Source: a virus (taxonomy: Duplodnaviria; Caudoviricetes). Taken from it: a stretch of DNA of 64,000 bases. The position numbers and the translations under genes were made by a program. The stretch lies in the IMG/VR virus record IMGVR_UViG_3300011008_002712, one strand, 5' to 3'. Position 1 is the first letter of the stretch; each line of letters begins with the position of its first letter. Below the pieces are notes generated by a model. It did not search any database. It was not told where the DNA came from and worked only from the letters and a program-made list of their open reading frames with translations. Positions 44,676 through 64,000 of this stretch are shown one piece after another.

Positions 44676-44818
44676 CTACCCTATTTATATTAATTTTTGC
44701 AAAAATTAAATAAATTTCAAAGAAAATATCATTTTCTTCTCATTTAAAAAAATAATATAAATAATTGTGGTGTTTATCCTAAATGAAAGTATAAAGGAAT
44801 AAAAGAAAAATAAAATTG

Positions 44819-44850
44819 CTATGTACATTCAATATTTACTATGTTAAAAT
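44819..44850 (+). promoter_or_regulatory. Conserved phage promoter (variant)
   Basis: CTA-TGTACA-17 nt-TAAAAT with TG extension. Confidence 0.65.
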
Positions 44851-44869
44851 TAAACAGAGGTGAAAGAAC

Positions 44870-45157
44870 ATGCGCCTAAGCGAAATGAATGATGATGAAA
44901 AGAAGAAATTCAAAAAACAATTCGGACTGCCGCAAAACAAAGATATAATTTATTACGACAGCTATAAACCTTATTCAAAGCATATAGTAAGTGATTTAGA
45001 AATTATATATACGTATAAATCTGGTTGTGTTACATTAGACGTTTGGTTAGAAAATGGAGAAAAAACAGAACTTCCTATTCATTCTTCTTATTTAAAAGAA
45101 ATGCAAAACAAAAATTTTCTTAAGCATAGATTAGAAGGGAATGATACAAATGAATGA
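44870..45157 (+). CDS. Hypothetical protein
   Basis: 95-aa ORF with GAGGT RBS; IHSSYLKEMQ. Confidence 0.7.
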   Translation: MRLSEMNDDEKKKFKKQFGLPQNKDIIYYDSYKPYSKHIVSDLEIIYTYKSGCVTLDVWLENGEKTELPIHSSYLKEMQNKNFLKHRLEGNDTNE

Positions 45158-46265: not shown

Positions 46266-46301
46266 AAAAGAGAGAGGATTTTTAAATCCTCTCTTGTTTT
46301 T
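46264..46301. terminator. Bidirectional terminator
   Basis: AGAGAGGATTT/AAATCCTCTCT flanked by A and T tracts, between convergent genes. Confidence 0.8.
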
Positions 46302-48792
46302 ATTCATTTTCTTCTAAGTTATCGCCATTTATCCATTTTTCATTAATTTTTTTCACTTTATCATGGTCTATATATTTTGCACTCAATCCGCCATAGCCTT
46401 TATCTCCAGAAATAACTAACAAATTACCTTTTTTCAAAATATCAGAATTATTTTTGTACATATCATTCCACATTGTAATTCCGACAATTTCTAAAGGTGT
46501 TATTAAAATTATTCTATAATATTCATTGCCCTTTTTCGAACGTTTTTTAACAACTTCTTTTATCAATCCTCCAATTTCAATACTATCTCCATCTTTTATG
46601 TCTTCTAAAGACTTAAGATGCTTTTTGTTTTTAAACGGATGATCAATAAAGCTAATTTCAAATGTATCTAAATCATCAAGATAACATTTAACCTTATTAA
46701 ATTTCGTTCTATATATTTTTGTTTTTGCTTTAACAAATGCATGAACAAATTTATCTTTAACTTCTTCTTTTACTACTTCAAATATACCTTTTGGTTTGCA
46801 TCTTGTTTTTTCTACATCATCAATTATTTTCCCAAATTTTTCAAGAAATGGTTCTGGAACAACAACACAATTGGGATTCTTTTTTTCTTTAATAAGTTCG
46901 TCTTCCCCAAATGCATTTAAATATTTTCCAGCAACAGTTGTCAAATCAACTAAATAATTTGGTATACTAGTTTTTGAATTTGTCTCTTGATAACTTTCAA
47001 ACCATTTCCTTTGCTGTGCTCTATTCATATAAAGCAAACAACAATCATCTTTTTCTTCTACTTTTATAAATTCTTTGCATTTATCATCTACAATATCTTT
47101 TGGAACTTGCAATGGCAAGCTTTCAAATGCCCCTATTTGAATACATACATCAACATTTCGTTTATTGTGTCCTTGGCTTCCAGTTTTTTCAAAAAATTCT
47201 TGTATCGTTGAAAATGGTTGCGCATTCATAATGTCTGCTGCGCCAGCTGCGCCCAATCCTTTTATGCAATTCAATCCCATTCTAATAGAATTATTATCGA
47301 TATTTTCTATTTTTGCTTCAAACTTACTTGCAGAAATATCCGGCGGCCTAACATCAATATTAAATGCTCTTGCTTCTTGCATGCAATTATTAAAATGTTC
47401 CAACTTCTCATTATTAAATAACACAGTAAAAAACACTAATGGATAATTTGCTTTTACCCATGCACACCAATATGCGATGTACGAATAACATACTGAGTGC
47501 GATTTGTTAAATAAATAAGCACTATTATCAATGATAGCTTGCGCTATTGTTTTACATGCTTTTTCTGGTATTCCACGTGATAATCCAGTCGGTATAACTT
47601 CTTTATTAAATTTTTCTACCCATGGTATGTTCTTCTTTTTATCAGGTTTTTCAAGTGCTCTTCTATATATATCAGCTTCACCAAAGTCAATTCCTAATAA
47701 TTCAGCAATAAGTCCCATCACTTGTTCTTGATACACTATACCACCCATCGTGGGCTCCAATATTTTATCAAATGCTGGCCAAATTTTCTTTAGTTTACTT
47801 GGATCTTTTTTTGCTGCGCAATATTCATCTAACCCAGAAGTACCAGGTCGTATAAAAGCATTTACAGCCGATAATTCTTCCATCGTACGCGGCTTTATTT
47901 TTTTTATTACAGGAACAGCTGCCGCACCATCCATTTGAAACACACCACGAAGATATTTTGCGTCACATATTAAGTCCCAAGCTTTATCGTTATCTAACGG
48001 TATAGACATCTGTTTTAAATCTTTATGATAATATTTATTGATTAAATTTAACTCATCGCAAATAATATCCATTGTGCGTAATCTAAGTATATCGTATTTC
48101 ATGCCACCAATTTGCTCTATCTCATCTTTACAATACATGCTTCTATACCATGTATTATGTGATGAAGTTTCTACAGCCGGTGCAACTGGAGTCAAATCAG
48201 TTATTTCCATATTAGATGGAGTTATTACAATTCCTGCTGGATGTTGAGATACAGATTTCGGAAGATTCATAAATGTTTTCAAATAATCTCTTAGATGATA
48301 ATTTTCATATTTATCTAAGAATTCATTCACTTCTTTAACATCTTTTATATCATCAAATGTTTTTGCATCTTTGTCAATTTTTTTAGCTGCGAAATCAACT
48401 TCTGCAAGTGGAATTTCAAAAACTCTCGCAATATCTCTCAAAGCAGCTTTTGGTTTCATATATTGAAAAGTAGCTATATTACAACAATGATTTTTACCAA
48501 ATGTTTGATTCAAAAAATCATATATTTCATCACTTCTAAGATAGGAAGTATCTCCGTCAATATCTGGTACATGACCGACTCTACGGGGATTCAAAAATCG
48601 TTCAAAAAATAAATCATACTCAAGAGGATCTACTTGAGTAATATCTAGTGCATAATTTAAAAGTGATCCAGCACCAGAATTATGCACTATTAAACCGTCA
48701 ATATTATATGAATGTACATCTTTTACTTCTAAGTCGTAAACTTTCCCTTTGTATTGAAAAGTTTTTTTAGAAGTAAGTCTTTTATATTTCAT
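46300..48792 (-). CDS. dnaE: DNA polymerase III alpha, C-terminal half, fused to the C-terminal split-intein fragment (IntC)
   Basis: After HN|S: SGAGSLLNYALDITQVDP, FERFLNP, PDIDGD, HPAG, KYDIL, GVFQ, RPG, YQEQ, FNKSHS, HhH and OB fold. Confidence 0.95.
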   Translation of the reverse strand: MKYKRLTSKKTFQYKGKVYDLEVKDVHSYNIDGLIVHNSGAGSLLNYALDITQVDPLEYDLFFERFLNPRRVGHVPDIDGDTSYLRSDEIYDFLNQTFGKNHCCNIATFQYMKPKAALRDIARVFEIPLAEVDFAAKKIDKDAKTFDDIKDVKEVNEFLDKYENYHLRDYLKTFMNLPKSVSQHPAGIVITPSNMEITDLTPVAPAVETSSHNTWYRSMYCKDEIEQIGGMKYDILRLRTMDIICDELNLINKYYHKDLKQMSIPLDNDKAWDLICDAKYLRGVFQMDGAAAVPVIKKIKPRTMEELSAVNAFIRPGTSGLDEYCAAKKDPSKLKKIWPAFDKILEPTMGGIVYQEQVMGLIAELLGIDFGEADIYRRALEKPDKKKNIPWVEKFNKEVIPTGLSRGIPEKACKTIAQAIIDNSAYLFNKSHSVCYSYIAYWCAWVKANYPLVFFTVLFNNEKLEHFNNCMQEARAFNIDVRPPDISASKFEAKIENIDNNSIRMGLNCIKGLGAAGAADIMNAQPFSTIQEFFEKTGSQGHNKRNVDVCIQIGAFESLPLQVPKDIVDDKCKEFIKVEEKDDCCLLYMNRAQQRKWFESYQETNSKTSIPNYLVDLTTVAGKYLNAFGEDELIKEKKNPNCVVVPEPFLEKFGKIIDDVEKTRCKPKGIFEVVKEEVKDKFVHAFVKAKTKIYRTKFNKVKCYLDDLDTFEISFIDHPFKNKKHLKSLEDIKDGDSIEIGGLIKEVVKKRSKKGNEYYRIILITPLEIVGITMWNDMYKNNSDILKKGNLLVISGDKGYGGLSAKYIDHDKVKKINEKWINGDNLEENE
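48679..48792 (-). mobile_element. Split intein C-fragment (IntC, 38 aa)
   Basis: MKYKRLTSKKTFQYKGKVYDLEVKDVHSYNIDGLIVHN|S: block F (VYDLEV..H.Y), block G (HN), +1 Ser. Confidence 0.93.
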
Positions 48793-48879
48793 CCATATCA
48801 TCCTTTCTTCTATTTATTTTATAAAAATTATTTTCTTTTTATAAAGAAACATCTATCAATTTCTTGAAAATTTATTTTT

Positions 48880-50592
48880 TTAGTTATTACATTCAATCCA
48901 TTCTTGATTAAACGTCGGTTCTAATGAATAGAAAAATCCATTTATTTCTTTATGATTCATTGCTTTTGTTTTACTAATTTTTAATTTTTTGAATTCATCA
49001 AACATTTCTGTTTTTGTATGATATGTTTTCACGATATTACCATCATGATCAAACTTATAACATGTTTTTGAATGTTTACACGGAAAAGATTTTTCTGTAT
49101 AATTTCTGCTTCCTTTTTTAAAAATCATTCCGTGATATGTTTCTCCAGTTTTGACACATTTTTCCAATCTATAGTGTGTCATATTCAATTTTTCACAAGT
49201 TTCATTATTTGTCTTAAATTCATAAATTAATTCATTTTCTTCATTAAATACTTTAACTGGGACACCATTTACTGCATTTTCACCTTTTTTGTTGAACATC
49301 CCATTTTTTTCACCAGTTGTAGATTTTTTCCAATGTTCAATCTTATTTTTTGTGTCTTCTGTCCATTCAAAATAATGATCTTTTACCAGTAAATGTTCAT
49401 TTATTGCATTTTTAATTTCTTGTTTTGTCAAAGAAAATTCATTTTCTAACGCAACTATAGACAAAAATGTTTTGACAAATTTCATGTTTTTATCATATAC
49501 ATTAATGTGATATCCATTGATGGATTTTTCCACTTTTTTCCCATGCATGCCATTCAATTTTCCTCGTGTTTTACCATTTTTTATTCTTTTTTTGCTTAGT
49601 GCTTTTTTCTGTTCCTCTGTCCATTTATTTCCATAATTTGGATTTTTTTCTCCAGTTACAGCTTTGGACATTTTTTGTTTAAAAAACTCTCGTTCTTTCT
49701 TTGTCATGTTTTTCCAAGCTTCTTGTTTTATCTTGCTTTGATGCAAACATTCTTCTTTTGATCTAACATTATTTTTTCTTTTAAATTTTACATCGTTTCT
49801 AATTTTACCAAAACGTTTTGTAATTTTAAATAACTCATATTCATTATTTGAATATCCCAAAATATCAATTTTTTCGTTTTCATTGATAAGAGAATCAATA
49901 AATTTTTGAGAAAAATCTTTAGTAATTACATAATCACAGATCTTAGAATCTGTTAATAAGTTTGTAATTACATAAGCAAATCCAATTGAATCGTTTTTAG
50001 GCATTAATTCATTATTCCAAGATTGTGGCATCGATGTTATCATCAAATGTGCATTATCAAAAAAAATCAAATTTTCTTGATTTGTGACGTGAATAAAGTC
50101 TCTCATTCTTTTTAAATCTTTTAGCGTCAAAAATTGATAATTCATATTATGTTTTAAACAAAAATCTTTAGCAGCTAATGATTTAATTTTTGACCATTCA
50201 TCAATTTTTCCTTTTATTTCAATGATAGAATTATTGACAATGAAATCAGGATAGTAAAAATGACTTTCATTTCCAGTTAAATATGGAATTTGAACATCAC
50301 ATCGTTTTATTGGGATGTTATTTTTAATACAATGATGAATAAAGCCTAATTCATAACTACTTTCAAATTTTATCCCATAATAACTACCATGAAGTGTTTT
50401 ATGAGAAACATATTTGTTAATGCATTTATTACATATTGCCTCATACTTATGTTGTCTTGTTTGCAAAGAATTCCACGAAACAACACTCTCTTTGTTACAT
50501 TCTTTACACACTATAAGAACGTTACAATTTCTTTTTTCCGTTTTATGTTCTAAAAAATAATTATAATCGACTGTTTTCAAATTAACACTCAT
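48880..50592 (-). CDS. Putative homing endonuclease (Zn ribbon, TnsA-like PD-(D/E)xK, GIY-YIG remnant, NUMOD3/NUMOD1)
   Basis: CKEC..CNKC, FESSYE, YYPDF..IIEIKG, GFAYVITN, GEKNPNYG/NGMHGK repeats. Confidence 0.8.
   Translation of the reverse strand: MSVNLKTVDYNYFLEHKTEKRNCNVLIVCKECNKESVVSWNSLQTRQHKYEAICNKCINKYVSHKTLHGSYYGIKFESSYELGFIHHCIKNNIPIKRCDVQIPYLTGNESHFYYPDFIVNNSIIEIKGKIDEWSKIKSLAAKDFCLKHNMNYQFLTLKDLKRMRDFIHVTNQENLIFFDNAHLMITSMPQSWNNELMPKNDSIGFAYVITNLLTDSKICDYVITKDFSQKFIDSLINENEKIDILGYSNNEYELFKITKRFGKIRNDVKFKRKNNVRSKEECLHQSKIKQEAWKNMTKKEREFFKQKMSKAVTGEKNPNYGNKWTEEQKKALSKKRIKNGKTRGKLNGMHGKKVEKSINGYHINVYDKNMKFVKTFLSIVALENEFSLTKQEIKNAINEHLLVKDHYFEWTEDTKNKIEHWKKSTTGEKNGMFNKKGENAVNGVPVKVFNEENELIYEFKTNNETCEKLNMTHYRLEKCVKTGETYHGMIFKKGSRNYTEKSFPCKHSKTCYKFDHDGNIVKTYHTKTEMFDEFKKLKISKTKAMNHKEINGFFYSLEPTFNQEWIECNN
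50330..50373. repeat. 44-bp exact direct repeat (copy 1; copy 2 at 51738-51781)
   Basis: caatgatgaataaagcctaattcataactactttcaaattttat, shared by the two tandem endonuclease paralogs. Confidence 0.85.
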
Positions 50593-51994: not shown

Positions 51995-52130
51995 TCTCTT
52001 CTCCATTTTTTATTTATTTTAAACATAAATTAAAAAAAAATAAAAAGAAAATTGCATTTTTGCTACAAAGTAGTATGCTTCATAATTTTTTTAATAAAAT
52101 AAATTACTTTACTGAAAGGAGCAAAAATAA

Positions 52131-52502
52131 ATGAATTTAGAACAACAAGTTAAAAACGCTGGTCCTCATGAATTGGTTTTAATGCTTTATGATGGTTGCA
52201 TTAACTTTATTGATAAGGGAGAAGAGGCACTCGTTAATAAAGACTATGAAACATCAAATAATTTTCTTCAAAGAGCAGAAAATATTTTGACAGAACTTAC
52301 TATCAATCTCGATATGAAGTATGATATTTCTAAACAATTATCTTCTCTTTATTGTTATGCTTATGATCGTTTAGTAGAAGGTAATTTGTTTAGCAAAACA
52401 TCTCTAATTGAAGAAGCAAAGAAAATTGTTTCAGAACTTAGAGATGCATGGATTCAAGCAATTAACAAAGTAACTCCAGAAGAAATTGAAGCGTTCGCAT
52501 AA
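52131..52502 (+). CDS. fliS: Flagellin chaperone FliS homolog
   Basis: QQVKNAGPHELVLMLYDG...AENILTEL..LDMKYDIS..L..LY....RLVEGN...ELRDAW; AAGGAG RBS. Confidence 0.9.
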   Translation: MNLEQQVKNAGPHELVLMLYDGCINFIDKGEEALVNKDYETSNNFLQRAENILTELTINLDMKYDISKQLSSLYCYAYDRLVEGNLFSKTSLIEEAKKIVSELRDAWIQAINKVTPEEIEAFA

Positions 52503-52519
52503 TTTTTCTCTTTATATCT

Positions 52520-52548
52520 AAAGGAGGATGCATTGCATCCTCTTTTTT
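52520..52548 (+). terminator. Intrinsic terminator after fliS
   Basis: GAGGATGCA-t-TGCATCCTC followed by T tract. Confidence 0.75.
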
Positions 52549-52606
52549 ATTTTTAACATCAAAATTTATTTATTTTATAGAAGAAATTTTTGGGAGGCGC
52601 TTATCA

Positions 52607-53137
52607 ATGGGAAGAGTGAAAGTAGGTGTAAGAACAAAAGAACTCATTGAGAAGATTGACAAACCTCAAGAATGTCAAGAAGTTAAAAAACCGCAAGAAG
52701 AAGCTGTGCAGGAAAAACCAAAAAGAAAAATATCTTTTATAAGATGTTTTGTAAAAAACTTTGATATTCTTATGTGCTTGTTTAGAAAATTTGTACCAGA
52801 ATTCATCATAATGGCTTTGCTTGGTTTGTTTGGATTATGGGGTTTTGGTTATATAATGAATGGATTATATGGAATGGCGTTTCAATTAGATAGTAGCTTA
52901 GCTGCAGTTGGTGCCATTTCATCAGCTGGCGTTCTTTCTTTAATTAGATATTTGACAGATAGTAAATTGAACAGCGTACTGGGATCTGCTCCAACTAAAG
53001 CATTAACCGATAAACTTAATAGATATATAGCTGGTAAAGATCATTTTGTTGATGAAAACAAAAATGGAATAGATGATAGAAAAGAATGCAATGAATTTCC
53101 TGGAAAGAAAGACATGAACTATAAGGATGGTGAATGA
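52607..53137 (+). CDS. Putative holin (two TM segments)
   Basis: Two hydrophobic helices (W.FGY..NGLYG..F.L; RYLTDSKLNS), directly upstream of and overlapping the amidase reading frame. Confidence 0.65.
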   Translation: MGRVKVGVRTKELIEKIDKPQECQEVKKPQEEAVQEKPKRKISFIRCFVKNFDILMCLFRKFVPEFIIMALLGLFGLWGFGYIMNGLYGMAFQLDSSLAAVGAISSAGVLSLIRYLTDSKLNSVLGSAPTKALTDKLNRYIAGKDHFVDENKNGIDDRKECNEFPGKKDMNYKDGE

Positions 53138-53138
53138 T

Positions 53139-53669
53139 ATGTCAAGTTGTTTGATAAATGCTGGACATCATGTAACATACGACGCGGGAGCCGTCTCTCC
53201 AAGGACTGGCCTTAGAGAAACAGATGTAGCATTAAAAGTAAGCAATCTAATTGTTGATTATCTAAATGCTGCTGGCGTATATTCTCAACAATTTCAAGCA
53301 AATGAATTAGATGAAATCACAGATTATGCTAATAACAATGAATTTGATTTATTTGTAAGCATTCATTGTAATGCTGCTAGTAATTATTCTGCACAAGGCA
53401 CTGAAACTTGGTATTATCAAGGAAGCAGCAACAGCCAACATCTGGCTTCTTGTATTCAAGATCAAATTATAAATTCATTACCTGTTACTGATAGAGGAAT
53501 CAAACCAACTACAGGATTATATGTGCTTAAACATACAGATATGCCAGCAGCTTTGGTAGAATTGGCATTTATAACAAACGAATACGATGAAAGTCTTTTA
53601 TCAAATGATCATTATATAGATGAATTTGCAAGAGCTATTGCTCGAGGAATTACTGATGCGTTACAATAA
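53139..53669 (+). CDS. N-acetylmuramoyl-L-alanine amidase (Amidase_3 endolysin), catalytic domain only
   Basis: INAGH, E, FVSIHCNA, GTET, LYVLKHTDMPAALVELAFITN. Confidence 0.93.
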   Translation: MSSCLINAGHHVTYDAGAVSPRTGLRETDVALKVSNLIVDYLNAAGVYSQQFQANELDEITDYANNNEFDLFVSIHCNAASNYSAQGTETWYYQGSSNSQHLASCIQDQIINSLPVTDRGIKPTTGLYVLKHTDMPAALVELAFITNEYDESLLSNDHYIDEFARAIARGITDALQ

Positions 53670-53678
53670 TGTATAAAT

Positions 53679-53705
53679 AAAAAGAGGGAATTTTCCCTCT
53701 TTTTT
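53679..53705 (+). terminator. Intrinsic terminator
   Basis: AAAAAGAGGGAA/TTCCCTCTTTTT. Confidence 0.75.
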
Positions 53706-53714
53706 CTTTTTTAA

Positions 53715-53746
53715 CTATTTACATTTATTTTTTTTTATGATAAAAT
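53715..53746 (+). promoter_or_regulatory. Conserved phage promoter
   Basis: CTA-TTTACA-17 nt-TAAAAT with TG extension. Confidence 0.75.
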
Positions 53747-53768
53747 TGCATTAGAAAGGATGATTAAA

Positions 53769-54578
53769 ATGATTATTGGAAGCCACTTATCTACATCTAA
53801 AGGGTTTTTTAAAATGGCACAAAACGCCGTTAATATGAATGCCAATACTTTTGCGTTTTTTATTCGCAATCCTCGTGGATTTAGCGCAAAGGTTATAGAC
53901 AAGGATGATGCAAAAAGAATGAATGATTTATTAAAAGAATATAATTTTGGTAAATTGGTTGTGCACGCTCCCTATACATTGAATTTGTGTTCAAATGACA
54001 AAAAAATCTTAGAGGTTTTTAAGGATGATTTACAAAGGATGGAAAATTTTCCTGGTAATTACTACAACCTCCATCCAGGAACTCACGGTGGGAAAGGAGA
54101 AATGACAGGCATCATCAATGTTATTTGCAATTTAAACGATGCTCTTACCAGTGACTTGAATACTATCGTCCTTATTGAGACAATGGCTGGAAAAGGCACC
54201 GAAATCGGCAAGACATTTAAAGAAATAAAAAATATGATTTCTGGAGTTAAGTTAAAAGATAAGATTGGAGTCTGCCTTGATACATGCCATGCTTGGGATG
54301 CTGGATATGACATGAGAAACATAGACACTGTGCTGGAAGAATTCGATAAAGTAATAGGTATAGATTATTTAAAAGCAGTACATTTAAATGATAGTAAGAA
54401 CGAGATGGGCTCTCATAAGGATCGTCACGCTCAATTGGGTGAAGGCAAAATCGGATTAGAAGCACTAACCAAAATTGTCAATCATAAACATCTTAAAAAA
54501 TTGCCATTTATTTTGGAGACACCAAATGTTTCTATGCACGCTGGAGAAATTGCTTTGATGAGGCAACGAGAAGTTTAA
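53769..54578 (+). CDS. nfo: Endonuclease IV (AP endonuclease)
   Basis: IGSH, HAPY.LNL, HPG, ETMAGKGTEIG, CLDTCH, HLNDSK, DRH, ILETP. Confidence 0.95.
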   Translation: MIIGSHLSTSKGFFKMAQNAVNMNANTFAFFIRNPRGFSAKVIDKDDAKRMNDLLKEYNFGKLVVHAPYTLNLCSNDKKILEVFKDDLQRMENFPGNYYNLHPGTHGGKGEMTGIINVICNLNDALTSDLNTIVLIETMAGKGTEIGKTFKEIKNMISGVKLKDKIGVCLDTCHAWDAGYDMRNIDTVLEEFDKVIGIDYLKAVHLNDSKNEMGSHKDRHAQLGEGKIGLEALTKIVNHKHLKKLPFILETPNVSMHAGEIALMRQREV

Positions 54579-54703
54579 AAATGAAAACTAAAATTAGAAT
54601 GAATGTATAAGAGTTTTTATAACGGGAGAATTTATAGTTTTTCACGTTATTAATTGACTATGCCGTTTGACTATCATAATTTATGTAAAATGGAGGTTTT
54701 TAA

Positions 54704-55237
54704 ATGAAAAAAATGTTTTCTATCAAGAATATAGCAGCAATTATGTTGTGTGTAATTACAATGATAGTTTCTGCTTGTGGTGGACATCCAGTAGAAGAAT
54801 GGCCTGAATATAAAGATGCGAAAAAATCATACGATACGTGGTTTTATTGCTGGACAGAAAAATTTAATGGTAAAGACATTCATATTGATAGCAGAATAAA
54901 ATCAGTTAATTTTAAACCTTCAGCTAATATTTCTGGAAATTTAGAAATGAGTGGATTATTCTTTGTTGGACGAGGACAAATAGACTCAACTGATTATTAT
55001 TATGTATATCAAGAAGTCGATCCTGATAAGTATAAATTAGTTAAAATACCTGCTGATGAGACTATCATTTTAGAAACAAATGAAATCTCTCCAAGTATTG
55101 CTGCTGAGTATGATTTTGAATTTGATTTAAATTTATATTATGACTGGAAACATGGTCATTATTCATTCACAAAGAATAACCTTATAATAGTACCAAAAGA
55201 TACTGTTATACAAGAATTTAATGTACAAAATATTTGA
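54704..55237 (+). CDS. Putative lipoprotein
   Basis: Basic N-terminus, hydrophobic core and lipobox VSA|C; GGAGG RBS. Confidence 0.75.
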   Translation: MKKMFSIKNIAAIMLCVITMIVSACGGHPVEEWPEYKDAKKSYDTWFYCWTEKFNGKDIHIDSRIKSVNFKPSANISGNLEMSGLFFVGRGQIDSTDYYYVYQEVDPDKYKLVKIPADETIILETNEISPSIAAEYDFEFDLNLYYDWKHGHYSFTKNNLIIVPKDTVIQEFNVQNI

Positions 55238-55371
55238 ATAAAGAAAAATTTTGGTACATAATTGGGCTGGTTTTGCTATCATTTGTATATGCATTGACTA
55301 GCCCAATTATACGCGTTTATGCGCAAGTTTTCTTGGGGGCTATTTTAGCAATTATTTTTGTAGAAATTTAA
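55234..55371 (+). CDS. Small two-TM membrane protein (45 aa)
   Basis: TTGA overlap with the lipoprotein stop; MNKEKFWYIIGLVLLSFVYALTSPIIRVYAQVFLGAILAIIFVEI. Below the ORF-track cutoff. Confidence 0.55.
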   Translation: MNKEKFWYIIGLVLLSFVYALTSPIIRVYAQVFLGAILAIIFVEI

Positions 55372-55519
55372 GTAGAATATTGCATAATGATTCAATGCAT
55401 AGTAAACTTTACAATGTAATGCACAGACTGTTACATATACAAAATTTTAAAAAATAAATTATAAAAACGACGTTTATTTATAATAAAATGTTATTATAAA
55501 TGATAGGAGATAATTAATA

Positions 55520-55960
55520 ATGAAAAAACATTTGATACGTCGTAAAACAGCTTCAATATTGGAAAAACTTAACATTGATACTAATGATGTTAGATTTATA
55601 GGCAAAAATGAAGATGCCACTGTCGATAATGAATTTAAAGTTATTGATTTTTTTAACGATTTAAATGATGAAGATAAGCAACATGCAGTAAGCATAATGA
55701 ACAATGAATATCACAATAGATTTAAAGATTCTACAACTATTAACCTTCGCGAAGCATATTTGATATTGAAAACCTTAGGTGATAACAAAAATTTACCAAT
55801 TTGGAAAAATGTTATTGGTAAGTTAGAACCATTTTATTACTATTCTTGTTCCACGGATTTATTTAATGACGAATCTTTTAATTGGTTTACAAAAGATGAT
55901 TTAATTGAATACATTGATCCAAAAACTGGAGATTATTATGAAGAATACAAATTGCAATGA
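55520..55960 (+). CDS. Hypothetical protein with N-terminal RRKTA motif
   Basis: AGGAG RBS; MKKHLIRRKTAS. Confidence 0.7.
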   Translation: MKKHLIRRKTASILEKLNIDTNDVRFIGKNEDATVDNEFKVIDFFNDLNDEDKQHAVSIMNNEYHNRFKDSTTINLREAYLILKTLGDNKNLPIWKNVIGKLEPFYYYSCSTDLFNDESFNWFTKDDLIEYIDPKTGDYYEEYKLQ

Positions 55961-56034
55961 AAAACAATGATAGTACTTATTTTATGCTATACAAATATTA
56001 TTAAATAAATTTGTTTAACAATTTTTTTATTTAA

Positions 56035-56065
56035 CTATTTACATTTTATTGTTTTACTGTATAAT
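56035..56065 (+). promoter_or_regulatory. Conserved phage promoter
   Basis: CTA-TTTACA-16 nt-TATAAT. Confidence 0.7.
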
Positions 56066-56082
56066 ATTAAATAAGAAAGAAG

Positions 56083-56586
56083 TTGGCAATGATGTTTAAA
56101 ACATTAACTAATAAAGTTAAACAAAAATACATTGATTTCGGAAATTTTGTTATTAAAAAAATTTTAAACAACAACTATAAAAATATTTGCGTTTTTGGAA
56201 CATGCTCAGATGATATCAACAACATGGGATGGATAAAATCTATGTATCATTTGCAAGAACTTGATGATGCAACTTTTTATGCGGCATTAAATAAAAATGG
56301 TAAAACTTTAGAGAACATTGTTGATTACGACATGGTAATTCTTCTTGATTTGAAATTTAATAATGATAAGTTTGATATTTCATTCGAAATGATTTCGTCT
56401 AATGATATTGGAATAAATAGCAATGTACCTGTTATTCAACTTCATTATATGTTAAATGATGACAAATTTGAAATTGAAAGAGATTGTAATCTATTTTCTG
56501 ATGGTATTTCTGACGTTACTTTTATAAAAAGTCAAAAATATAGGAAAATTCCAAATGAATTAACAAAACAAGAACTTTTAAATTAA
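56083..56586 (+). CDS. Hypothetical protein, paralog family copy 1
   Basis: Shares YxxxGN, KNIxVF, WIKSM, AL..GK.L, DM.I, SDGIS with the next two ORFs. Confidence 0.8.
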   Translation: MAMMFKTLTNKVKQKYIDFGNFVIKKILNNNYKNICVFGTCSDDINNMGWIKSMYHLQELDDATFYAALNKNGKTLENIVDYDMVILLDLKFNNDKFDISFEMISSNDIGINSNVPVIQLHYMLNDDKFEIERDCNLFSDGISDVTFIKSQKYRKIPNELTKQELLN

Positions 56587-56626
56587 TCAAAAGCAAAAAC
56601 ACAGACATAAAAATGAAAGATGAAAT

Positions 56627-56654
56627 AAAAAGGAGAGGTTTTACCTCTCTTTTT
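56627..56654. terminator. Bidirectional terminator
   Basis: GAGAGGT-tt-t-ACCTCTC flanked by A and T tracts. Confidence 0.75.
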
Positions 56655-56660
56655 CAATAG

Positions 56661-57155
56661 TTAAAAAAGATTTTTTTCTTCCTGTTTATCCAATTCCCAG
56701 TAATGTTTTTTATATTTTTCAATACTTTTTTTATCTTTTGCATCGCTTATTCCATCTGAAATCAAAATATCGTATTCTTCTGGTATGAAATGATCTTTTG
56801 CGAAACAATAATCGATTTGTACCAACGGAACATTATTCTTAATGCCAAAGTCGGAAGAGTTTTTATCTTCAAACATAATGTCAAAATTTCTGCAATTAAA
56901 TTGCTGATTAATGATTATACCCATGTCGCATTGAGACAAATCGTTCAAACTTTTTCCTTCGCAATCTAATGCAGTCCAAATACAAACGTCATTAATCATA
57001 CATCCATGGAACATAGATTTAATCCACCCAACATTGTTAAGATTGTCAGGCAATGCAGAAAACACACCAACATTTTTATAGTTGTTTAACAAAATTTTAT
57101 TAATAATGTAATTTCCTAATGAAACATATTTTTCCTTAAGATTTTCACCTTGCAT
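56661..57155 (-). CDS. Hypothetical protein, paralog family copy 2
   Basis: WIKSMFHGC, SDGISDAK; ends EEKNLF. Confidence 0.8.
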   Translation of the reverse strand: MQGENLKEKYVSLGNYIINKILLNNYKNVGVFSALPDNLNNVGWIKSMFHGCMINDVCIWTALDCEGKSLNDLSQCDMGIIINQQFNCRNFDIMFEDKNSSDFGIKNNVPLVQIDYCFAKDHFIPEEYDILISDGISDAKDKKSIEKYKKHYWELDKQEEKNLF

Positions 57156-57191
57156 TACGATTGCCCCTTTCTAACATGATATCTAATTTTA

Positions 57192-57223
57192 ATTATATCA
57201 TAATTTTAAACAAAAGTAAATAG
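57192..57223 (-). promoter_or_regulatory. Conserved phage promoter
   Basis: CTA-TTTACT-17 nt-TATAAT with TG extension. Confidence 0.75.
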
Positions 57224-57296
57224 CTTAAGAAAATTTTTTCTTAAGCTATACAAAATTAGTTAATCAATTGTTAATTTCTTTTTTCAATTTCAATAG

Positions 57297-57803
57297 TTAA
57301 AAAAGATTTTTTTCTTCTTCTTGAGTCAAATCCCAATAAGGTTTGTTATGTTTCTTTATACTTTGAATTTTTTTAGCATTGCTAATCCCATCTGAAACGA
57401 GATCGCTATCTTCTACATAAAATTTATCAGTATCAAACAAATAATTAATCTGAATGATTGGAACTTGCCCCGCAACACCAATATCGTCTGAAATTTTATC
57501 TTCATACGTGACATTGAATTCGTCATTATTGAATTGCAAATTAAGCAAAATCACCATATCATAATCAGCAATGTTCTCTAAAGTTTTTCCTTTGCTTTCC
57601 AATGCAGCTTCAATAACAGCATCTCTGATTTCGCATCCATGAAACATGGACTTAATCCAAGAAATATCATTACTGCGATCAGACGATGTTGCGAAAACGC
57701 CAATGTTTTTGTGTTCGTTGTTTATAATGCTATTGACAATATGATTGCCAATAGCAATGTATGATTGTTCCAATTTTTTGTCAAGTTGTCTGCATTTGGC
57801 CAT
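57297..57803 (-). CDS. Hypothetical protein, paralog family copy 3
   Basis: AGGAGGT RBS before ATG at 57803 (MAKCRQ); WIKSMFHGC; ends EEKNLF. Confidence 0.8.
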   Translation of the reverse strand: MAKCRQLDKKLEQSYIAIGNHIVNSIINNEHKNIGVFATSSDRSNDISWIKSMFHGCEIRDAVIEAALESKGKTLENIADYDMVILLNLQFNNDEFNVTYEDKISDDIGVAGQVPIIQINYLFDTDKFYVEDSDLVSDGISNAKKIQSIKKHNKPYWDLTQEEEKNLF

Positions 57804-57836
57804 TTTGTTATTACCTCCTAAATAATCTTTTATTAT

Positions 57837-57868
57837 ATTATACCATACGTACAAGAAAAAGTAAATAG
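57837..57868 (-). promoter_or_regulatory. Conserved phage promoter
   Basis: CTA-TTTACT-17 nt-TATAAT with TG extension. Confidence 0.75.
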
Positions 57869-57902
57869 CCAAAATAAAAATTTTTATCTTGGCTATTTAA
57901 AA

Positions 57903-58763
57903 TTAATCAATTAAATACTTATCACGTTTTTCAATTTCATTATCTACAAAATCTTTAGTATCTTGATATGTTAATTTATTTGTATACATAAACGTATTTC
58001 CATCATTTAACTTATAACCATTTTGTTTGATTTTATCGCGAATTGTTACCCATAATTCACCTGGAAATTTTTGATAAGTCGATTTTGATATTTTCCCATC
58101 TGTATCATATTTGTGTTCTACAACTACAACTTCTTTTTTTCCTGTTTTCATTAAGTAACACTCTTCAAGAAGATATATAATAGGATGTTGAACGCCAATT
58201 GGCGGTAATTGATATCCGAAACAACCAAAACATCCTCTTTCGTCATTGTCAAACCATTCAAATCCTTCTTTTAAAAGCGTTTGCAATAATTCATTGAAAA
58301 TTTGTTCTGTTTGTGATTGAGGCACATCATGAATATCCCTTGTATCACTAATTTTTTGCAATCTTTTTTTAGATCCTTCACATCCGCCAAAATCTCCACC
58401 CATTCCTATATCAGAACCACTCCATTCTCCTCCAGATGTATCTGAAGATGAATCCGTAGCGCCATAATCAGAATATCCATAATAGTTATCATATCCCCAG
58501 TTTCCCCACCAATATGGAGTATACCATATATGTTGCTGAGATTGTGGTAGTTTTTTCACTAAATGTTTTTTAGAATTTTTGCCAATGTAATTTTCATCTG
58601 GATCCATCCAATTTTCAAATTCTTCGCTTTCATTTCTTGGCCAATTATCAGCACAATAAAAGTAAAATGGACAAGGGCCATATATTATGTGATTTTCTGG
58701 TTTTACCATTGTATTATTTTGTGGCCATTCTGAAAATTTTATATTTTTTTGTAATCTTTTCAA
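57903..58763 (-). CDS. Hypothetical protein with repeated KRLQK motifs and a W/Y/G-rich low-complexity linker
   Basis: MKRLQKN, KKHLVKK, KKRLQKIS; WYTPYWWGNWGYDNYYGY...SGGEWSGSDIGMGGDFGG. Confidence 0.7.
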   Translation of the reverse strand: MKRLQKNIKFSEWPQNNTMVKPENHIIYGPCPFYFYCADNWPRNESEEFENWMDPDENYIGKNSKKHLVKKLPQSQQHIWYTPYWWGNWGYDNYYGYSDYGATDSSSDTSGGEWSGSDIGMGGDFGGCEGSKKRLQKISDTRDIHDVPQSQTEQIFNELLQTLLKEGFEWFDNDERGCFGCFGYQLPPIGVQHPIIYLLEECYLMKTGKKEVVVVEHKYDTDGKISKSTYQKFPGELWVTIRDKIKQNGYKLNDGNTFMYTNKLTYQDTKDFVDNEIEKRDKYLID

Positions 58764-58766
58764 TAT

Positions 58767-59087
58767 TTACACCCCAAAATATAATGCATATTTATTTAAT
58801 ATATATAATCTTAGTTCTTCAATTTCTTTTTCTATTTTATAAATAAATTTATTGTAATTTGCAAAGTTATTGAAAATAAATTGATGAAAAAATTTCTTTT
58901 TTAAAAAAATTAAAAATATATCAAATTGTCTTGATTGTTCAAAACTATTTATAAAATCAGGAACAAAATTTGATATATTTATAATATCATTAGAAATGCT
59001 AATTGCCAAATTACATTTTTCAATATTAAATTTTAAAATTATCAAAAAAAACGTTTTTTTCTTTTTAAAAGATTTTACTACTATCAT
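58767..59087 (-). CDS. Hypothetical protein
   Basis: 106-aa ORF coupled to the upstream gene. Confidence 0.5.
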   Translation of the reverse strand: MIVVKSFKKKKTFFLIILKFNIEKCNLAISISNDIINISNFVPDFINSFEQSRQFDIFLIFLKKKFFHQFIFNNFANYNKFIYKIEKEIEELRLYILNKYALYFGV

Positions 59088-59851
59088 TATAAATATCCCG
59101 ATTTTTTTGCTAGTTCGTCATATGCTCTAATTAAATTATCGTCGTCTAACTCATGATAGCAATTTATGACAAATTGAGCAAATTCTTGATGATTTAACAA
59201 ATAATGTGTTTTCTGATTATCACTACTCATATATTCTATATTAATTCTATACACATAATGATTGTTTTTTTCAATCTTTACTTTAAATAATGAATCAACT
59301 TGATCTTTTGCGTCATATGCAGTTCGTAAATCTACAAACATAGTATGGCAATTATTATAATATGCATGATCATTATACATAAGCAAAAATGGATATTTCG
59401 CAGAATTCAAATATTTGTCAATGTCTTCTACATTAAACACACATTCCATATGTTCTTTTCCAGATGCAAAAAAATGTCTTCTTATAGCTGTTGGACCAAG
59501 CATTTTAACATCAACTGCTATATTAAAATCTGATTGAAAATCTATTGATGAATAATTAAAATTATAGTCGTCAGTTGTAAAGATATATAAATCATGATCG
59601 CCCATATATTTAAAAAGTCTTCCGAAAAATGGATTCCTTCCAAATTTAATTTCTCCTATCCTGCCTTCAAGTAATCTCCCATTTATGCCAGATAAATCCC
59701 ATTTATGGTTTTTCAATCCATGATAAATTTGTATGGTTTCATCATGAAAAATCGGAGATGTTTCAATCAAATTTTTCATATATTGTGAACGATATTTTTT
59801 TAACAAATTTGATTTGAAATTTTCCATATCATTCCTCTTGTATAAAATCAA
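59087..59851 (-). CDS. Putative PD-(D/E)xK nuclease-like protein
   Basis: GRIGE...SIDFQ...IAVDVK pattern. Confidence 0.55.
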   Translation of the reverse strand: MILYKRNDMENFKSNLLKKYRSQYMKNLIETSPIFHDETIQIYHGLKNHKWDLSGINGRLLEGRIGEIKFGRNPFFGRLFKYMGDHDLYIFTTDDYNFNYSSIDFQSDFNIAVDVKMLGPTAIRRHFFASGKEHMECVFNVEDIDKYLNSAKYPFLLMYNDHAYYNNCHTMFVDLRTAYDAKDQVDSLFKVKIEKNNHYVYRINIEYMSSDNQKTHYLLNHQEFAQFVINCYHELDDDNLIRAYDELAKKSGYL

Positions 59852-60395
59852 AAATTTCTTTATTCATCATTATTAATTGAAGCAATTTCTTGCCAAAGAG
59901 TTTATCATCATTTTCTTCATATTCTAAATTATTTTCTTCTAACATAAGTTTTGCAATTAAAACAAACATATTACTCAACTTATATTCATTACATCCGTTT
60001 TTTACATACAAAATATAATTCTCTAAATCAATTTTATTGACCAAACCGTATTCTATTTTAAAATTTAACCCATTAAAACAAATCTTTTTTGCATTGCATT
60101 CATTTCTATAACAAGAAGATATAAAATCTTGGTTTATTTGTACAAAACTAAGAAAATCGTGAGAAAGTAATTCATTATATGTTTCAGAATTCAATGTATG
60201 CAACGAAGAATCATAGAGAAGAGCATGCATAATTTCATGAAAAATAGTTTCTTGTTTTCTTTGAAGAGACAAGCCATCTTTAATAAGAATGACTGTCTCT
60301 TCGTATTTTACCAATCCATTGCAAAGAGAATTTGCATATTCTATGCGATCTACAAAATTAATGTCGTAGTATAGCCCATTTATAAAAACATTCAT
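59829..60395 (-). CDS. HExxH metallopeptidase-like protein (ImmA/IrrE-like)
   Basis: G....I.IK..LS..RKQETIFHEIMHAL...E. Confidence 0.7.
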   Translation of the reverse strand: MNVFINGLYYDINFVDRIEYANSLCNGLVKYEETVILIKDGLSLQRKQETIFHEIMHALLYDSSLHTLNSETYNELLSHDFLSFVQINQDFISSCYRNECNAKKICFNGLNFKIEYGLVNKIDLENYILYVKNGCNEYKLSNMFVLIAKLMLEENNLEYEENDDKLFGKKLLQLIMMNKEIFDFIQEE

Positions 60396-60832
60396 GACAA
60401 TTTCTCCTTAATGATATTAGAAGCTAATTTCCCATCGTAAGTGCCAGCATGTTCATTTTTCAAACGATTCATAATAACACCAATAGATTTCTTATCTACA
60501 CTTGGTAGTTCGCTAATATAATTTGAAATGATTTTATCGAGCTCTTCTTTAGAAAGCTGTTTTGGTATATATTTTTGAAGAAGTTCAATCTTATTTTTAT
60601 ATTCCAGCACTTTTGATGGATCTTTTTTATTAAGTAGATCTATAACTTCTTCGGTTTTAGATTGGAAATTTTTTAAAATTTTAATAGCCTCGGCATCTGT
60701 AGTCTCTCTATTTCCATTGTTTTTACCAAAAGCAATAACATCTGCATACATTGTAGAAAGAAAACTAACAACATTAGATTGTTTATTCTTCCTAGCAGTA
60801 TCTAAATCTTTCTTAATTTCTTGTGCAATCAT
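60392..60832 (-). CDS. GatB/YqeY domain protein
   Basis: IKKDL..ARK, YIPKQLSKEEL..II, IGVIM..LK...G.YDGKLAS. Confidence 0.88.
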   Translation of the reverse strand: MIAQEIKKDLDTARKNKQSNVVSFLSTMYADVIAFGKNNGNRETTDAEAIKILKNFQSKTEEVIDLLNKKDPSKVLEYKNKIELLQKYIPKQLSKEELDKIISNYISELPSVDKKSIGVIMNRLKNEHAGTYDGKLASNIIKEKLS

Positions 60833-60872
60833 TTTATTTACTCCCTTCTGATTATCAAAACATATTAATAAT

Positions 60873-61376
60873 TCATTGTGCAAGATAACAATTATTGTTA
60901 ATAATGCACTTTTTTGCTAATTTATCAAATGCTTCACAAGCAATACAATTATCTTCATGTTCTTCATCTTTTATTAAAGATAAATCTTTATGAATAACAA
61001 TTGGAGAAAAACCATGAATTTCATCATATAGTATTCCTTCTGGAATATCGTTATAAAGATAAATTTTCTTAGCATTCATATAGGCTTCATACATTTCAAG
61101 AAATGTGGCACCGCCAATATAATTGATTTTATTTTCTATAGTAAGATTAAATACAAGCACAGCATCTACTTGAGAAATGACATTGGCACTTTTTTGATAC
61201 ATAGATTTCTTAAATTGTCTATGTGCTTCTTCACCTTTTGCCCAAGCTTCTTTTTCTGCGTCTGCATTGTCAATACAATTTGGAAGAAATACTTCATGAT
61301 TCAGCGATTCTAACTTATTTTTTAAATCATTTACATAGCAGTAAGATTTTTTACTGCAAATTATCAAAATTTTCAT
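60873..61376 (-). CDS. Nucleoside 2-deoxyribosyltransferase-like protein
   Basis: MKILIICS, EVFLP, DAVLVFN..NYIGGATFLEM..A...KKIYL. GAGGTGG RBS before ATG at 61376. Confidence 0.7.
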   Translation of the reverse strand: MKILIICSKKSYCYVNDLKNKLESLNHEVFLPNCIDNADAEKEAWAKGEEAHRQFKKSMYQKSANVISQVDAVLVFNLTIENKINYIGGATFLEMYEAYMNAKKIYLYNDIPEGILYDEIHGFSPIVIHKDLSLIKDEEHEDNCIACEAFDKLAKKCIINNNCYLAQ

Positions 61377-62508
61377 TTTCCACCTCACAACTCTTAATAA
61401 GAAATAATAATAAAAACATTTTAGAATGTATGACCTTGTCGTACCAACGAAAAAATGAATTATCATTTTTTTTATCAAGTTCGTTAAGATTTACATTCTG
61501 ATAACGTATATAGAAATCAATTAATTCTTTAGCAGCTTCTTTAGATTCTATATTTTCAAATTTTTTTTGAATTTTTTTAACAAAACTATTTTTATCCCAT
61601 AAAAATGATTCAATTTTATCTGTATTCCAAGCATAAGGCACTGATGTAATAATTAAATCGTGTGGTTCAAAAATCAATAATTCTTCTGGCGTAAGAAATG
61701 TTATGTCTAAATCATTCCGAGTGATAATTTTGAATTTTTTGTTTCTTCTCTCGCAATATTGCATTGCATATTCCATTTTTTTAGTCTCAAAATATGTTTT
61801 TACATCGCCTTTTATTTCAAACAAAGTATCATTTATTTGAAAGTCTGGTGTGTATATATGCCATTCATTATTTGCGTTTAGATATGGTATTTGTTCTGTG
61901 CAGTAAACAACGTTTTTATCTTCATTTTGATATAAAAACGATAATTCATAGCTGCTTGCGAAAAACCATTTTTTACGGAAAAATCCTTTTAAAAATCTTC
62001 CTTTGCCAATGCTTCTTTTTAGTGCAAAAAATTTATCCTTTTGAAACGTTAAAGATATAGATTTTTTTATTTTATCTTTTACACTTTGACTAGATTGTAC
62101 TGCTTTTTGAGCCTCACTGTTTGTAGTTTTCCATTCATCTAAAGATGTCACATAATTCATTATACAGTCATTGCAAATTTGTATATTGTTTGCATATTTC
62201 GAATGAATTATTTTGTCGATTCTACGAATATCTTTTTTTCCACATTTTTCACAAGTAATTTCAACAAATAATTTTGTGCTTTTTGATAAAACATCTCTAT
62301 TTTTTTGAAAAACTTCCCAAGAAAAAGGATTATTACGAGGCCCATAGTACAATGCATCAGGTGTTAATTTGTCTTTGTATAAAGTGTTTAGCACTCTAAA
62401 ACATCCAGAACAAATATTGGGATCATACCCTTGCGATATCTTTTTATTTTTGCTTTTTTCTGATTGTATAAAATTTTCTTTGCACCTAATGCATTGCATT
62501 GTTTTCAC
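61351..62508 (-). CDS. Putative homing endonuclease (Zn ribbons, TnsA-like PD-(D/E)xK) immediately after dnaE-IntN
   Basis: CIRC/CSGC/CEKC/CNDC, FASSYELSF, YTPDF..LFEIKG, LIITSVP..W shared with the two endonucleases at 48880-51994. Confidence 0.8.
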   Translation of the reverse strand: MKTMQCIRCKENFIQSEKSKNKKISQGYDPNICSGCFRVLNTLYKDKLTPDALYYGPRNNPFSWEVFQKNRDVLSKSTKLFVEITCEKCGKKDIRRIDKIIHSKYANNIQICNDCIMNYVTSLDEWKTTNSEAQKAVQSSQSVKDKIKKSISLTFQKDKFFALKRSIGKGRFLKGFFRKKWFFASSYELSFLYQNEDKNVVYCTEQIPYLNANNEWHIYTPDFQINDTLFEIKGDVKTYFETKKMEYAMQYCERRNKKFKIITRNDLDITFLTPEELLIFEPHDLIITSVPYAWNTDKIESFLWDKNSFVKKIQKKFENIESKEAAKELIDFYIRYQNVNLNELDKKNDNSFFRWYDKVIHSKMFLLLFLIKSCEVENENFDNLQ

Positions 62509-62510
62509 CT

Positions 62511-64000
62511 TTAAATTTCACATATAACATCATTAATTTCTAACTTATCGGCTTCAATCCATTGAGGAATTCTTATGCCATTATCAAAGTCTTTAGCTTT
62601 TATTGCTAAGATTTTATGATCTTTTGTGACACCATCAATCATTTTATCTTCAATTTGAAGTTGTAATAACTTTTCGTCTACATCATAAATAAATTTATTA
62701 ACAACTTCATGAAGTTTTTCATCTTTAGCATAGACAAGCTCACCAACATTTACGTCTCTAATTTGTTTTAACCCATACTGGGTTAAAACAAAATTATTAT
62801 CTTTAAAGCAACCCCTTCCAGGACCACATGGTATTTTAGCTTTATTTCTAATAAAATCAATTAAGCTTCCATATAAAATGAAATATGTCTCAAATCCCAT
62901 CTCTTTAATGACTTTCATTTCATGTGCAGCTCTAATTCTATCTTTTTTTGATTGTGCTCGTTTTTTTGTCAACCCATTAAGAAAAAGATATTCAAGATAT
63001 TTAGTTTTTTCTAACTCTTTTCCTCTAGATTCTTTTGATTTTTCTTTCCACTCATTATAAACACTATCATTTTTTGGTATTTCTACACTTGGCAAATAAT
63101 GAACGTCTGTAACAAATTCAACACTACATTGTTTTGCTATATCTTCAGAAAATTCAACAGCACTTAAAACCGCTTTTTGATCTAAAACTTCGTGACCAGA
63201 ACATTTAAATGCATTTAAAATTTCATCTTTTGTCATAATATAATAAGTATTCCCGCCATAAGTCCATCTATCTGGATTTGACATGACATCTTTACTCTGC
63301 ATGCAAAGAAGCACATCATGAGCTTCTTTGTGTTCTTGAGTCAAATAATGCGCATCTGTTGTAGCAACTAGTGGTATACCCATTTCTTTTGACAATTCTA
63401 TCAGCACTTTATTTACGATAACTTGATGTTCTATTGCTGTTGGCTGTATTTCTAAATAAAAATTACCATGAAATAATTTATGATAATATTCAATCCATTT
63501 TTTTGCTCCAACTATATCATCATTCATGATGCAACGTGGAATTCTACCAGCAATGCACGCAGACGTCGCTATTAAATCGTCAGTACCAATATCTTCAAGA
63601 CATTTATCGTCAATCCTTGCTTTATAGTAAAAACCTTTTGTTGCAGCTAAAGATGCCAATTTAGAAATTCTTTTATAACCTTCTATATTTTTTGCAAGAA
63701 TTATCATATGCTCATTCTTATATTGACGATAATGTTCAATGTCTTTATTATTCATATCATCTGTTACATAAAATTCTTCTCCAATAATTGGAATTACATC
63801 ATTTTTTTTAGCTTCATTATAATGAAACATAACAGCATATAAATTTCCATGATCTGTTATGCAACTATATACTTGGTGAGTTTCTCCAGTTTTTTTATTA
63901 AATTCATCTGTAATTTCTTTATTACGTCTTACTAAATCTTCTAACCTAAGGCAAGAATCCAATAAAGAATATTGAGAATGAACATGTAAATTGACAAAAT
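62511..64000 (-). CDS. dnaE: DNA polymerase III alpha, N-terminal half (PHP domain) fused to the split-intein N-fragment; starts beyond window edge
   Basis: Frame open to the edge: FVNLHVHSQYSLLDS, ITDHG, IIGEE, SACIAG, YLEIQ, ATTDAHY, YF..., GPGRG|C. Confidence 0.95.
   Translation of the reverse strand, partial: FVNLHVHSQYSLLDSCLRLEDLVRRNKEITDEFNKKTGETHQVYSCITDHGNLYAVMFHYNEAKKNDVIPIIGEEFYVTDDMNNKDIEHYRQYKNEHMIILAKNIEGYKRISKLASLAATKGFYYKARIDDKCLEDIGTDDLIATSACIAGRIPRCIMNDDIVGAKKWIEYYHKLFHGNFYLEIQPTAIEHQVIVNKVLIELSKEMGIPLVATTDAHYLTQEHKEAHDVLLCMQSKDVMSNPDRWTYGGNTYYIMTKDEILNAFKCSGHEVLDQKAVLSAVEFSEDIAKQCSVEFVTDVHYLPSVEIPKNDSVYNEWKEKSKESRGKELEKTKYLEYLFLNGLTKKRAQSKKDRIRAAHEMKVIKEMGFETYFILYGSLIDFIRNKAKIPCGPGRGCFKDNNFVLTQYGLKQIRDVNVGELVYAKDEKLHEVVNKFIYDVDEKLLQLQIEDKMIDGVTKDHKILAIKAKDFDNGIRIPQWIEADKLEINDVICEI
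62514..62810 (-). mobile_element. Split intein N-fragment (IntN, 99 aa)
   Basis: Block A CFKDNNFVLTQYGLKQIRDVNVGELV, block B VTKDHKIL (TxxH), WIEADKLEINDVI, then stop. No endonuclease domain and no block F/G. Confidence 0.93.

Follow-up and report, generated by a model that had tools for sequence, protein, structure and literature searches.

We analyzed a stretch of 64,000 nucleotides (hereafter the window) from the virus record IMGVR_UViG_3300011008_002712, in which the replicative DNA polymerase DnaE is encoded by two separate genes, each carrying one half of an intein. The window corresponds to the minus strand of G000:127998-191997, where G000 is the 416,024-bp genome of a jumbo phage (29.7% G+C, 99% complete). 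The N-gene (64000 to 62511, minus strand) encodes 499 amino acids, and its true ATG is 10 nucleotides past the end of the window (genome positions 127988-129487). It matched PHP and the beginning of DNA_pol3_alpha in Pfam. Its C-terminal end is GPGRG/C (slashes mark the splice junctions), followed through the N-terminal intein half (IntN, 99 amino acids with TKDH at residues 62-65) to a TAA stop codon. The C-gene (48792 to 46300, minus strand) encodes 830 amino acids, counted from an ATG that follows an AAGGA Shine-Dalgarno-like stretch, and it starts with a 38-amino-acid C-terminal intein half (IntC) that ends in His-Asn and is followed by /SGAGSL. On the DnaE model PRK05673 the two exteins abut, the N-half reaching position 365 and the C-half starting at 366. 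Removal of both intein halves thus restores the host protein, and the ligated polymerase is predicted to have 1192 amino acids. Only one dnaE N-half and one C-half were found in the 99%-complete genome, with no second copy of either. A preliminary description of the window had proposed the GPGRG/C-IntN and IntC/SGAGSL ends, the C-gene's own ribosome-binding site and the restored DnaE motif, and both genes agree with it on these points.

The residues of a Class 1 intein are all present: Cys1, the block B TxxH (T62 and H65), the block F Asp20, His37, Asn38, and Ser+1. IntC scored above the cut-off of the TIGR01443 intein_Cterm model (21.3 bits versus 15.6). As in naturally split inteins, the two halves (99 and 38 amino acids) are on separate genes, with a stop codon in IntN and a start of its own for IntC. 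The split point is the endonuclease loop, and a contiguous 138-amino-acid form from the same clade (P0152) aligns end to end with the halves. The charge complementarity that had been claimed for them is real, but it is moderate rather than strong: the net charge of IntN is −6 (−4 in its second half) and that of IntC is +4 (+7 in its first 18 residues).

Canonical trans-splicing in all likelihood joins the two separately made precursors into the replicative DnaE. Each precursor would have a transcription unit of its own. IntC is predicted to capture the acidic IntN through its basic N-terminal strand, and the pair would fold into a HINT domain. An N-S shift at Cys1, aided by T62 and H65, would be followed by transfer to Ser+1, cyclization of Asn38 (with His37 and Asp20), and an O-N shift, which would unite Gly and Ser in the nucleotide-binding GS motif of the 1192-amino-acid polymerase. 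The model of the IntN-IntC complex had a score of 0.95 (best control 0.01), its runs agreed in at least 99% of contacts with a partner pLDDT (predicted local distance difference test) of at least 93, and it resembled solved inteins. Of 80 solved complexes, 58 attained the mark for a pass, as did 2 of 110 mismatched pairs. The score is in favor of binding, but since solved inteins resemble IntN-IntC, it may reflect this likeness instead. The split intein is very probably functional, and the Ser+1 trans-splicing from separate transcription units that was first proposed is supported computationally.

The junction is in the nucleotide-binding Gly-Ser motif of DnaE, ~390 residues before the cyanobacterial intein site. 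The boundary of the cyanobacterial models PRK09532 and PRK07373 maps to C-gene residues 425-431, and the YLFNKSH site there (residues 425-432) is uninterrupted, as expected from the earlier claim of a non-cyanobacterial site with an intein-free FNKSH equivalent. In Escherichia coli DnaE, G363 and S364 form the incoming-nucleotide pocket (PMC4374717), and the GS motif was also aligned to Taq DnaE. Therefore, polymerase activity should need ligation of the halves. Alternatively, the intein halves might merely clasp the polymerase pieces together, with splicing absent or dispensable. Unligated split polymerases without inteins are known from Aeromonas phage (gp43A/B, PMC2988022), and the split minimal DnaE of group 2.2 jumbo phages assembles without ligation (PMC7824862). 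However, the catalytic residues of the intein are all kept across ~40% identity, and an unspliced domain of 137 amino acids would separate the Gly and Ser of the nucleotide pocket. We consider clasping very unlikely.

Two protein searches identified 50 N-halves with an IntN of 98-109 amino acids and 23 C-halves with an IntC, down to ~36% identity. A scan of viral contigs for the intein with the single protein had no match, and alignments were required. Cys1 and TxxH are present in all 50 IntN sequences, terminal Asn and Ser+1 in all 23 IntC sequences, and His-Asn in 22 of the 23. Both halves are under purifying selection. Between the window and L180, IntN had 0.10 nonsynonymous (dN) and 0.86 synonymous (dS) substitutions per site, while for IntC the proportions of nonsynonymous (pN) and synonymous (pS) differences from L004 were 0.10 and 0.75. 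Among comparisons, dN/dS of IntN was ~0.12 to 0.34 and pN of IntC was 0.10 to 0.23, with synonymous sites saturated.

The distance between the halves varies among relatives: ~1.1 kb in L201, 2.4 kb in L189 and L191, 2.7 kb in L205, 4.8 kb in L013, 5.5 kb in L020, 6.4 kb in L193, 7.3 kb in L008, 7.4 kb in L194, 7.9 kb in L010, 9.0 kb in L012, 13.7 kb in the window, and 22.7 kb in G002. The cargo in these gaps is largely different between relatives. In L202 the order is reversed: both genes are on one strand, but the C-gene precedes the N-gene by 7.6 kb, which argues that joining happens at the protein level. RNA-level joining, by a very large intron or by RNA trans-splicing, would instead yield a contiguous cis intein. 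Introns in the phage G polymerase have been mentioned (PMC7824862), and intron-like breaks occur elsewhere in dnaE genes of the clade (phage G, L008, L191, and L205). But IntN has a stop codon, IntC has a ribosome-binding site of its own and a start whose position is conserved in relatives, and the gap holds opposite-strand genes and a terminator. With the reversed order in L202, and with no Rfam match at E 0.1 in window positions 44000-64000, RNA-level joining is highly improbable. An assembly artefact, in which mis-joined contigs broke a contiguous intein, is exceedingly improbable. While no single contig in the searched public runs covers the whole gap, in dozens of independently assembled relatives the halves end or start at identical residues. 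Both the IntN stop and the IntC start are bridged by contigs from a related strain that differs by 2-5% (contig joints with sides of 20-24 letters were disregarded), and the flanking gene order is common to the window and G002. Misassembly, named beforehand as an outcome that would overturn the split, is excluded as a general explanation.

The gap in the window is 13,718 nucleotides long and contains 18 open reading frames of at least 100 amino acids, nine on the dnaE strand, seven on the opposite strand, and then two on the dnaE strand (Table 1). The preliminary description had the distance right, but it overlooked the three endonuclease genes at the intein ends and the opposite-strand block of seven genes. 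Four or five of the eight cargo genes next to the first endonuclease gene are common to the relatives L010 and L011. A pattern search found terminator-like hairpins at 11 sites versus 3.8 expected. The flagellar chaperone FliS homologue inside the gap (52131-52502, plus strand) was a Pfam match (E 5e-32). Three paralogous unknown genes (56083-57872) are 46-50% identical, one of them being inverted, and they have near-identical promoter-like and hairpin sequences upstream. Beyond dnaE-C, a homologue of the toxic-anion resistance protein TelA (45141-46265, plus strand) converges on it at the bidirectional terminator.

Table 1. Features of the split dnaE locus, in window coordinates
Feature	Position	Strand	Remark
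dnaE-N extein: PHP and start of polymerase core, ending GPGRG	62811..64000	-	gene start 10 nt beyond window end
IntN, 99 aa and stop; Cys1, TxxH (T62, H65)	62511..62810	-	
Putative free-standing PD-(D/E)XK (TnsA-like) endonuclease, 385 aa	61351..62508	-	right after IntN stop
Eight cargo genes: YqeY-like tRNA amidotransferase domain, peptidase-like, unknowns	56661..61376	-	co-oriented with dnaE-N
Terminator-like hairpin between the dnaE-N-strand block and the genes converging on it	56633..56649	-	pattern match only
Seven opposite-strand genes: FliS homologue, membrane protein, Amidase_3, endonuclease IV-like, lipoprotein, unknowns	52131..56586	+	
Putative PD-(D/E)XK endonuclease with NUMOD3, 474 aa	50582..52006	-	
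Putative PD-(D/E)XK endonuclease with NUMOD3/NUMOD1, 583 aa	48880..50631	-	ends 87 nt before IntC start
IntC, 38 aa; block F Asp20, His37, Asn38	48679..48792	-	own ATG and ribosome-binding site
dnaE-C extein, 792 aa, from Ser+1; catalytic PDIDxD, fingers, HhH	46300..48678	-	
Bidirectional terminator-like hairpin after dnaE-C	46270..46295	.	

The three genes directly after IntN and directly before IntC are related and share an SxYE...PDF...EIKG core and NUMOD repeats. Elsewhere in the genome only two weak homologues were found. Their family assignments are weak matches (TnsA-like, PDDEXK_3, phage endonuclease, and NUMOD), and the sequences suggest that they are endonucleases. The same family is found after the IntN stop in the window, L010 (twice), L202, and L206. 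L010 also has a member before IntC, and a remnant is present in the L201 gap of 1.1 kb. The close relative L180 (78% DNA identity) lacks the 1.13-kb segment with the endonuclease gene after IntN, and its IntN continues into the next gene. In the window, IntN-like last codons persist at the far end of this endonuclease gene. Moreover, L010 has a second copy of IntN, without the first ~20 residues, between two endonuclease genes (12615-12884), and this copy is possibly a displaced old gene end. The absence from L180, the IntN-like codons past the endonuclease gene, and the second IntN copy suggest that the endonuclease gene inserted into the IntN end and replaced it.

We propose that a contiguous mini-intein at GRG/S was probably broken at the usual endonuclease loop by a free-standing endonuclease gene, and that the gap then tolerated cargo while the halves drifted apart lineage by lineage. 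A different origin, in which cargo insertion or rearrangement in the intein loop split the gene without any endonuclease and the PD-(D/E)XK genes came afterward, attracted by a conserved essential gene, has a smaller but appreciable likelihood. In its favor, such an endonuclease is missing from most gaps in the clade (L004/L011, L012, L013, L191, and L205), and close relatives differ in whether they carry the gene after IntN, which is bordered on either side by a short repeat. However, within 416 kb three of the family's strongest members lie exactly at the intein ends, the shortest gap (L201) has the remnant, and the distant phage L161 has the compact layout at this very site. We prefer fracture by a free-standing endonuclease followed by drift. 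Some results weigh against our reading of the locus. Because the endonuclease gene after IntN is polymorphic and resembles a late insertion, the gene that first fractured dnaE may have been a different one from those now present, and the gene after IntN is a doubtful candidate for it. Within the clade we saw no compact locus of the form IntN-endonuclease-IntC (L161 alone has one), and matches in the promoter scan were at chance level (137 versus 124).

Several allele states occur at the GRG/S site. Intein-free alleles prevail (125 matches among the fetched loci). This point is occupied by a contiguous intein in Bacillus phage G (gp329, 245 amino acids), Methanobacterium virus PhiF1 (357 amino acids), and Lactococcus phage 949 (376 amino acids), and metagenomic phages also have contiguous inteins there (138 to 473 amino acids). 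L161 (7540-12280), a distant smaller phage, has an independent compact split with one GIY-YIG-like gene in an 838-nucleotide gap. The intein is distinct from the one at the cyanobacterial site, as had been suggested, but the site is a recurrent one for phage DnaE inteins. Scans of GTDB for the intein family yielded no relative in bacteria, but their sensitivity was limited and this is no evidence of absence. In the papers searched, we found no description of this site or intein family; a bacterial cis intein already known at GRG/S, for instance among the PolIII-alpha intein sites lettered a-g (PMC4760082), is possible.

In the N-extein tree, 59 sequences formed a clade (support 100/99) in which 47 split, 8 intein-free, and 4 contiguous alleles were interleaved; four rows with extra inserts and short fragments were omitted, and P0177, which was scored as intein-free, ends soon after the site. 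Well-supported branches force at least four changes for the split state and at least five for the intein-free state, with gain and loss indistinguishable. P0152 (L182, 7934-9631), a contiguous mini-intein of 138 amino acids with almost no linker, is among the split alleles on this tree. A tree holding all split IntN together, with P0152 outside, was not rejected (approximately unbiased test, p-AU 0.237), and P0152 may have arisen by re-fusion or may be an ancestral form that survived. Resolution of the IntN tree, which is based on few columns, was poor. As a tentative view, split, intein-free, and re-fused alleles might still turn over, with the PD-(D/E)XK family invading intein ends and rewriting the 3' end of IntN, and the break might be an insertion hot spot. 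If true, phages would provide the first complete natural gradation from contiguous inteins to wholly uncoupled halves, together with a rapidly splicing Ser+1 split intein that is orthogonal to Npu and gp41-1.

The DnaE of phage G is within the same strongly supported extein clade as the split alleles. Its intein is identical to the window at 33 of 99 IntN positions and 15 of 38 IntC positions. Although allelic, it lies on a long branch of its own and is unsupported as the direct ancestor. In phage G, dnaE (L001 5246-16009, gp329-gp339) is in three pieces, namely gp329 with the cis intein, gp331 after a GIY-YIG gene, and gp339, and seven unrelated genes over 5 kb are between gp331 and gp339. 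This second break is just before the third catalytic Asp motif and no intein was seen there; it is either a cargo-laden intron or a second gene split of another kind. Intron-like breaks were also observed in dnaE-C of L008, L013, L182, L191, and L205, soon after the ERFLN motif and before the KxDIL motif. Several of these five have extra cis inteins in PHP or the fingers as well. The sole other intein in G000 is a contiguous mini-intein in a helicase-like gene outside the window (G000 92218-94077), ending in Ser-Asn/Cys.

The best cultured match for both polymerase halves is Bacillus phage G (36% and 35%), which places the phage near jumbo group 3.2. This phage G-like group is defined by a PHP-containing DNA polymerase III alpha (PMC7824862), and the polymerase described here has the N-terminal PHP and the 100/99 support for its extein clade. 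The host is probably a Firmicute, because of the low G+C and the FliS, amidase, and TelA homologues. Public sequencing runs from sheep gut contain short pieces of close relatives.

The split-intein principle and phage DnaE split inteins are already known, and what is new here is that a split-intein family whose halves are completely uncoupled extends across a clade of phages. Few natural split inteins exist, and they are widely used for protein ligation. With Ser+1 and no fewer than 50 divergent IntN and 23 IntC sequences, this family is large enough to support consensus design and screens for orthogonality. Phage replication may also have favored fast splicing. Since intein-free, endonuclease-containing, mini, compact-split, distant-split, and order-reversed states are all found at one site, steps II to IV of the gene-fission model of 2009 can be tested within one clade; that paper describes step IV only for cellular genomes (PMC2677866). 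For annotation, the polymerases of these phages are miscalled as fragments.

The split intein works like the cyanobacterial DnaE split intein (Ssp and Npu), to judge by its sequence, but it is not a member of that family. Both are in the same host protein with halves at separate loci, an acidic IntN, a basic IntC, and similar sizes. The cyanobacterial DnaE split intein has Cys+1. Unlike Ssp and Npu, the intein in the window has Ser+1 and is ~390 residues further upstream. Close similarity to the Ssp and Npu halves was not seen: the likeness is faint for IntC (profile E 0.07-0.85), and IntN had no match at E 0.1. Because of the low similarity to Npu and gp41-1, orthogonality to both is plausible. 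The contiguous inteins of phage G, PhiF1, and 949 share the GRG/S point, Cys1, His-Asn, and Ser+1, but they are cis-splicing and encoded in one gene. The split PolB inteins of T4-like phages (Aes123 PolB1, CP21 PolB1, and LCGC14 PolB2), which have been developed as tools (PMC12707363), are also naturally split and in a phage replicative polymerase. They are cysteine-less and in a family B polymerase, whereas the intein in the window, with Cys1 and Ser+1, is in a family C polymerase.

The closest layouts for comparison are the fractured genes of Dassa et al. 2009 (PMC2677866). These comprise gp41-1, NrdJ-1, IMPDH-1, and DnaE-1 to -3 with split inteins, including three phage-like DnaE loci split at non-cyanobacterial points, each with an adjacent endonuclease gene. 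A phage-like DnaE with a split intein at a non-cyanobacterial site, as proposed in the preliminary description, had thus been published, while the uncoupled phage halves are new. The split in the window shares with these fractured genes the phage origin, the split in the endonuclease loop, the opposite charges, the endonuclease genes beside the halves, and the sizes (IntN 88-105 and IntC 33-54 amino acids in the fractured genes, 99 and 38 in the window). In the published cases, the two halves share a locus and are separated by at most a single gene, GIY-YIG or Vsr-like. L161 has this arrangement, with one locus, one strand, and only an endonuclease gene between the halves. In contrast, 18 genes on both strands separate the halves in the window, and relatives reach 22.7 kb or reversed order. 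A contrast with fractured genes had been drawn before; it stands for the layout, yet endonuclease genes flank both halves here as well, although of the PD-(D/E)XK/NUMOD type and not GIY-YIG or Vsr-like. Layout and endonuclease type set the window apart from DnaE-1 to -3, one of whose non-cyanobacterial insertion points may be the same as GRG/S. In the model of Dassa et al. 2009, later steps are endonuclease loss and uncoupling of the halves (step IV), the latter exemplified only by the cyanobacterial DnaE and the Nanoarchaeum polymerase. The split in the window looks like a later stage of a fractured gene.

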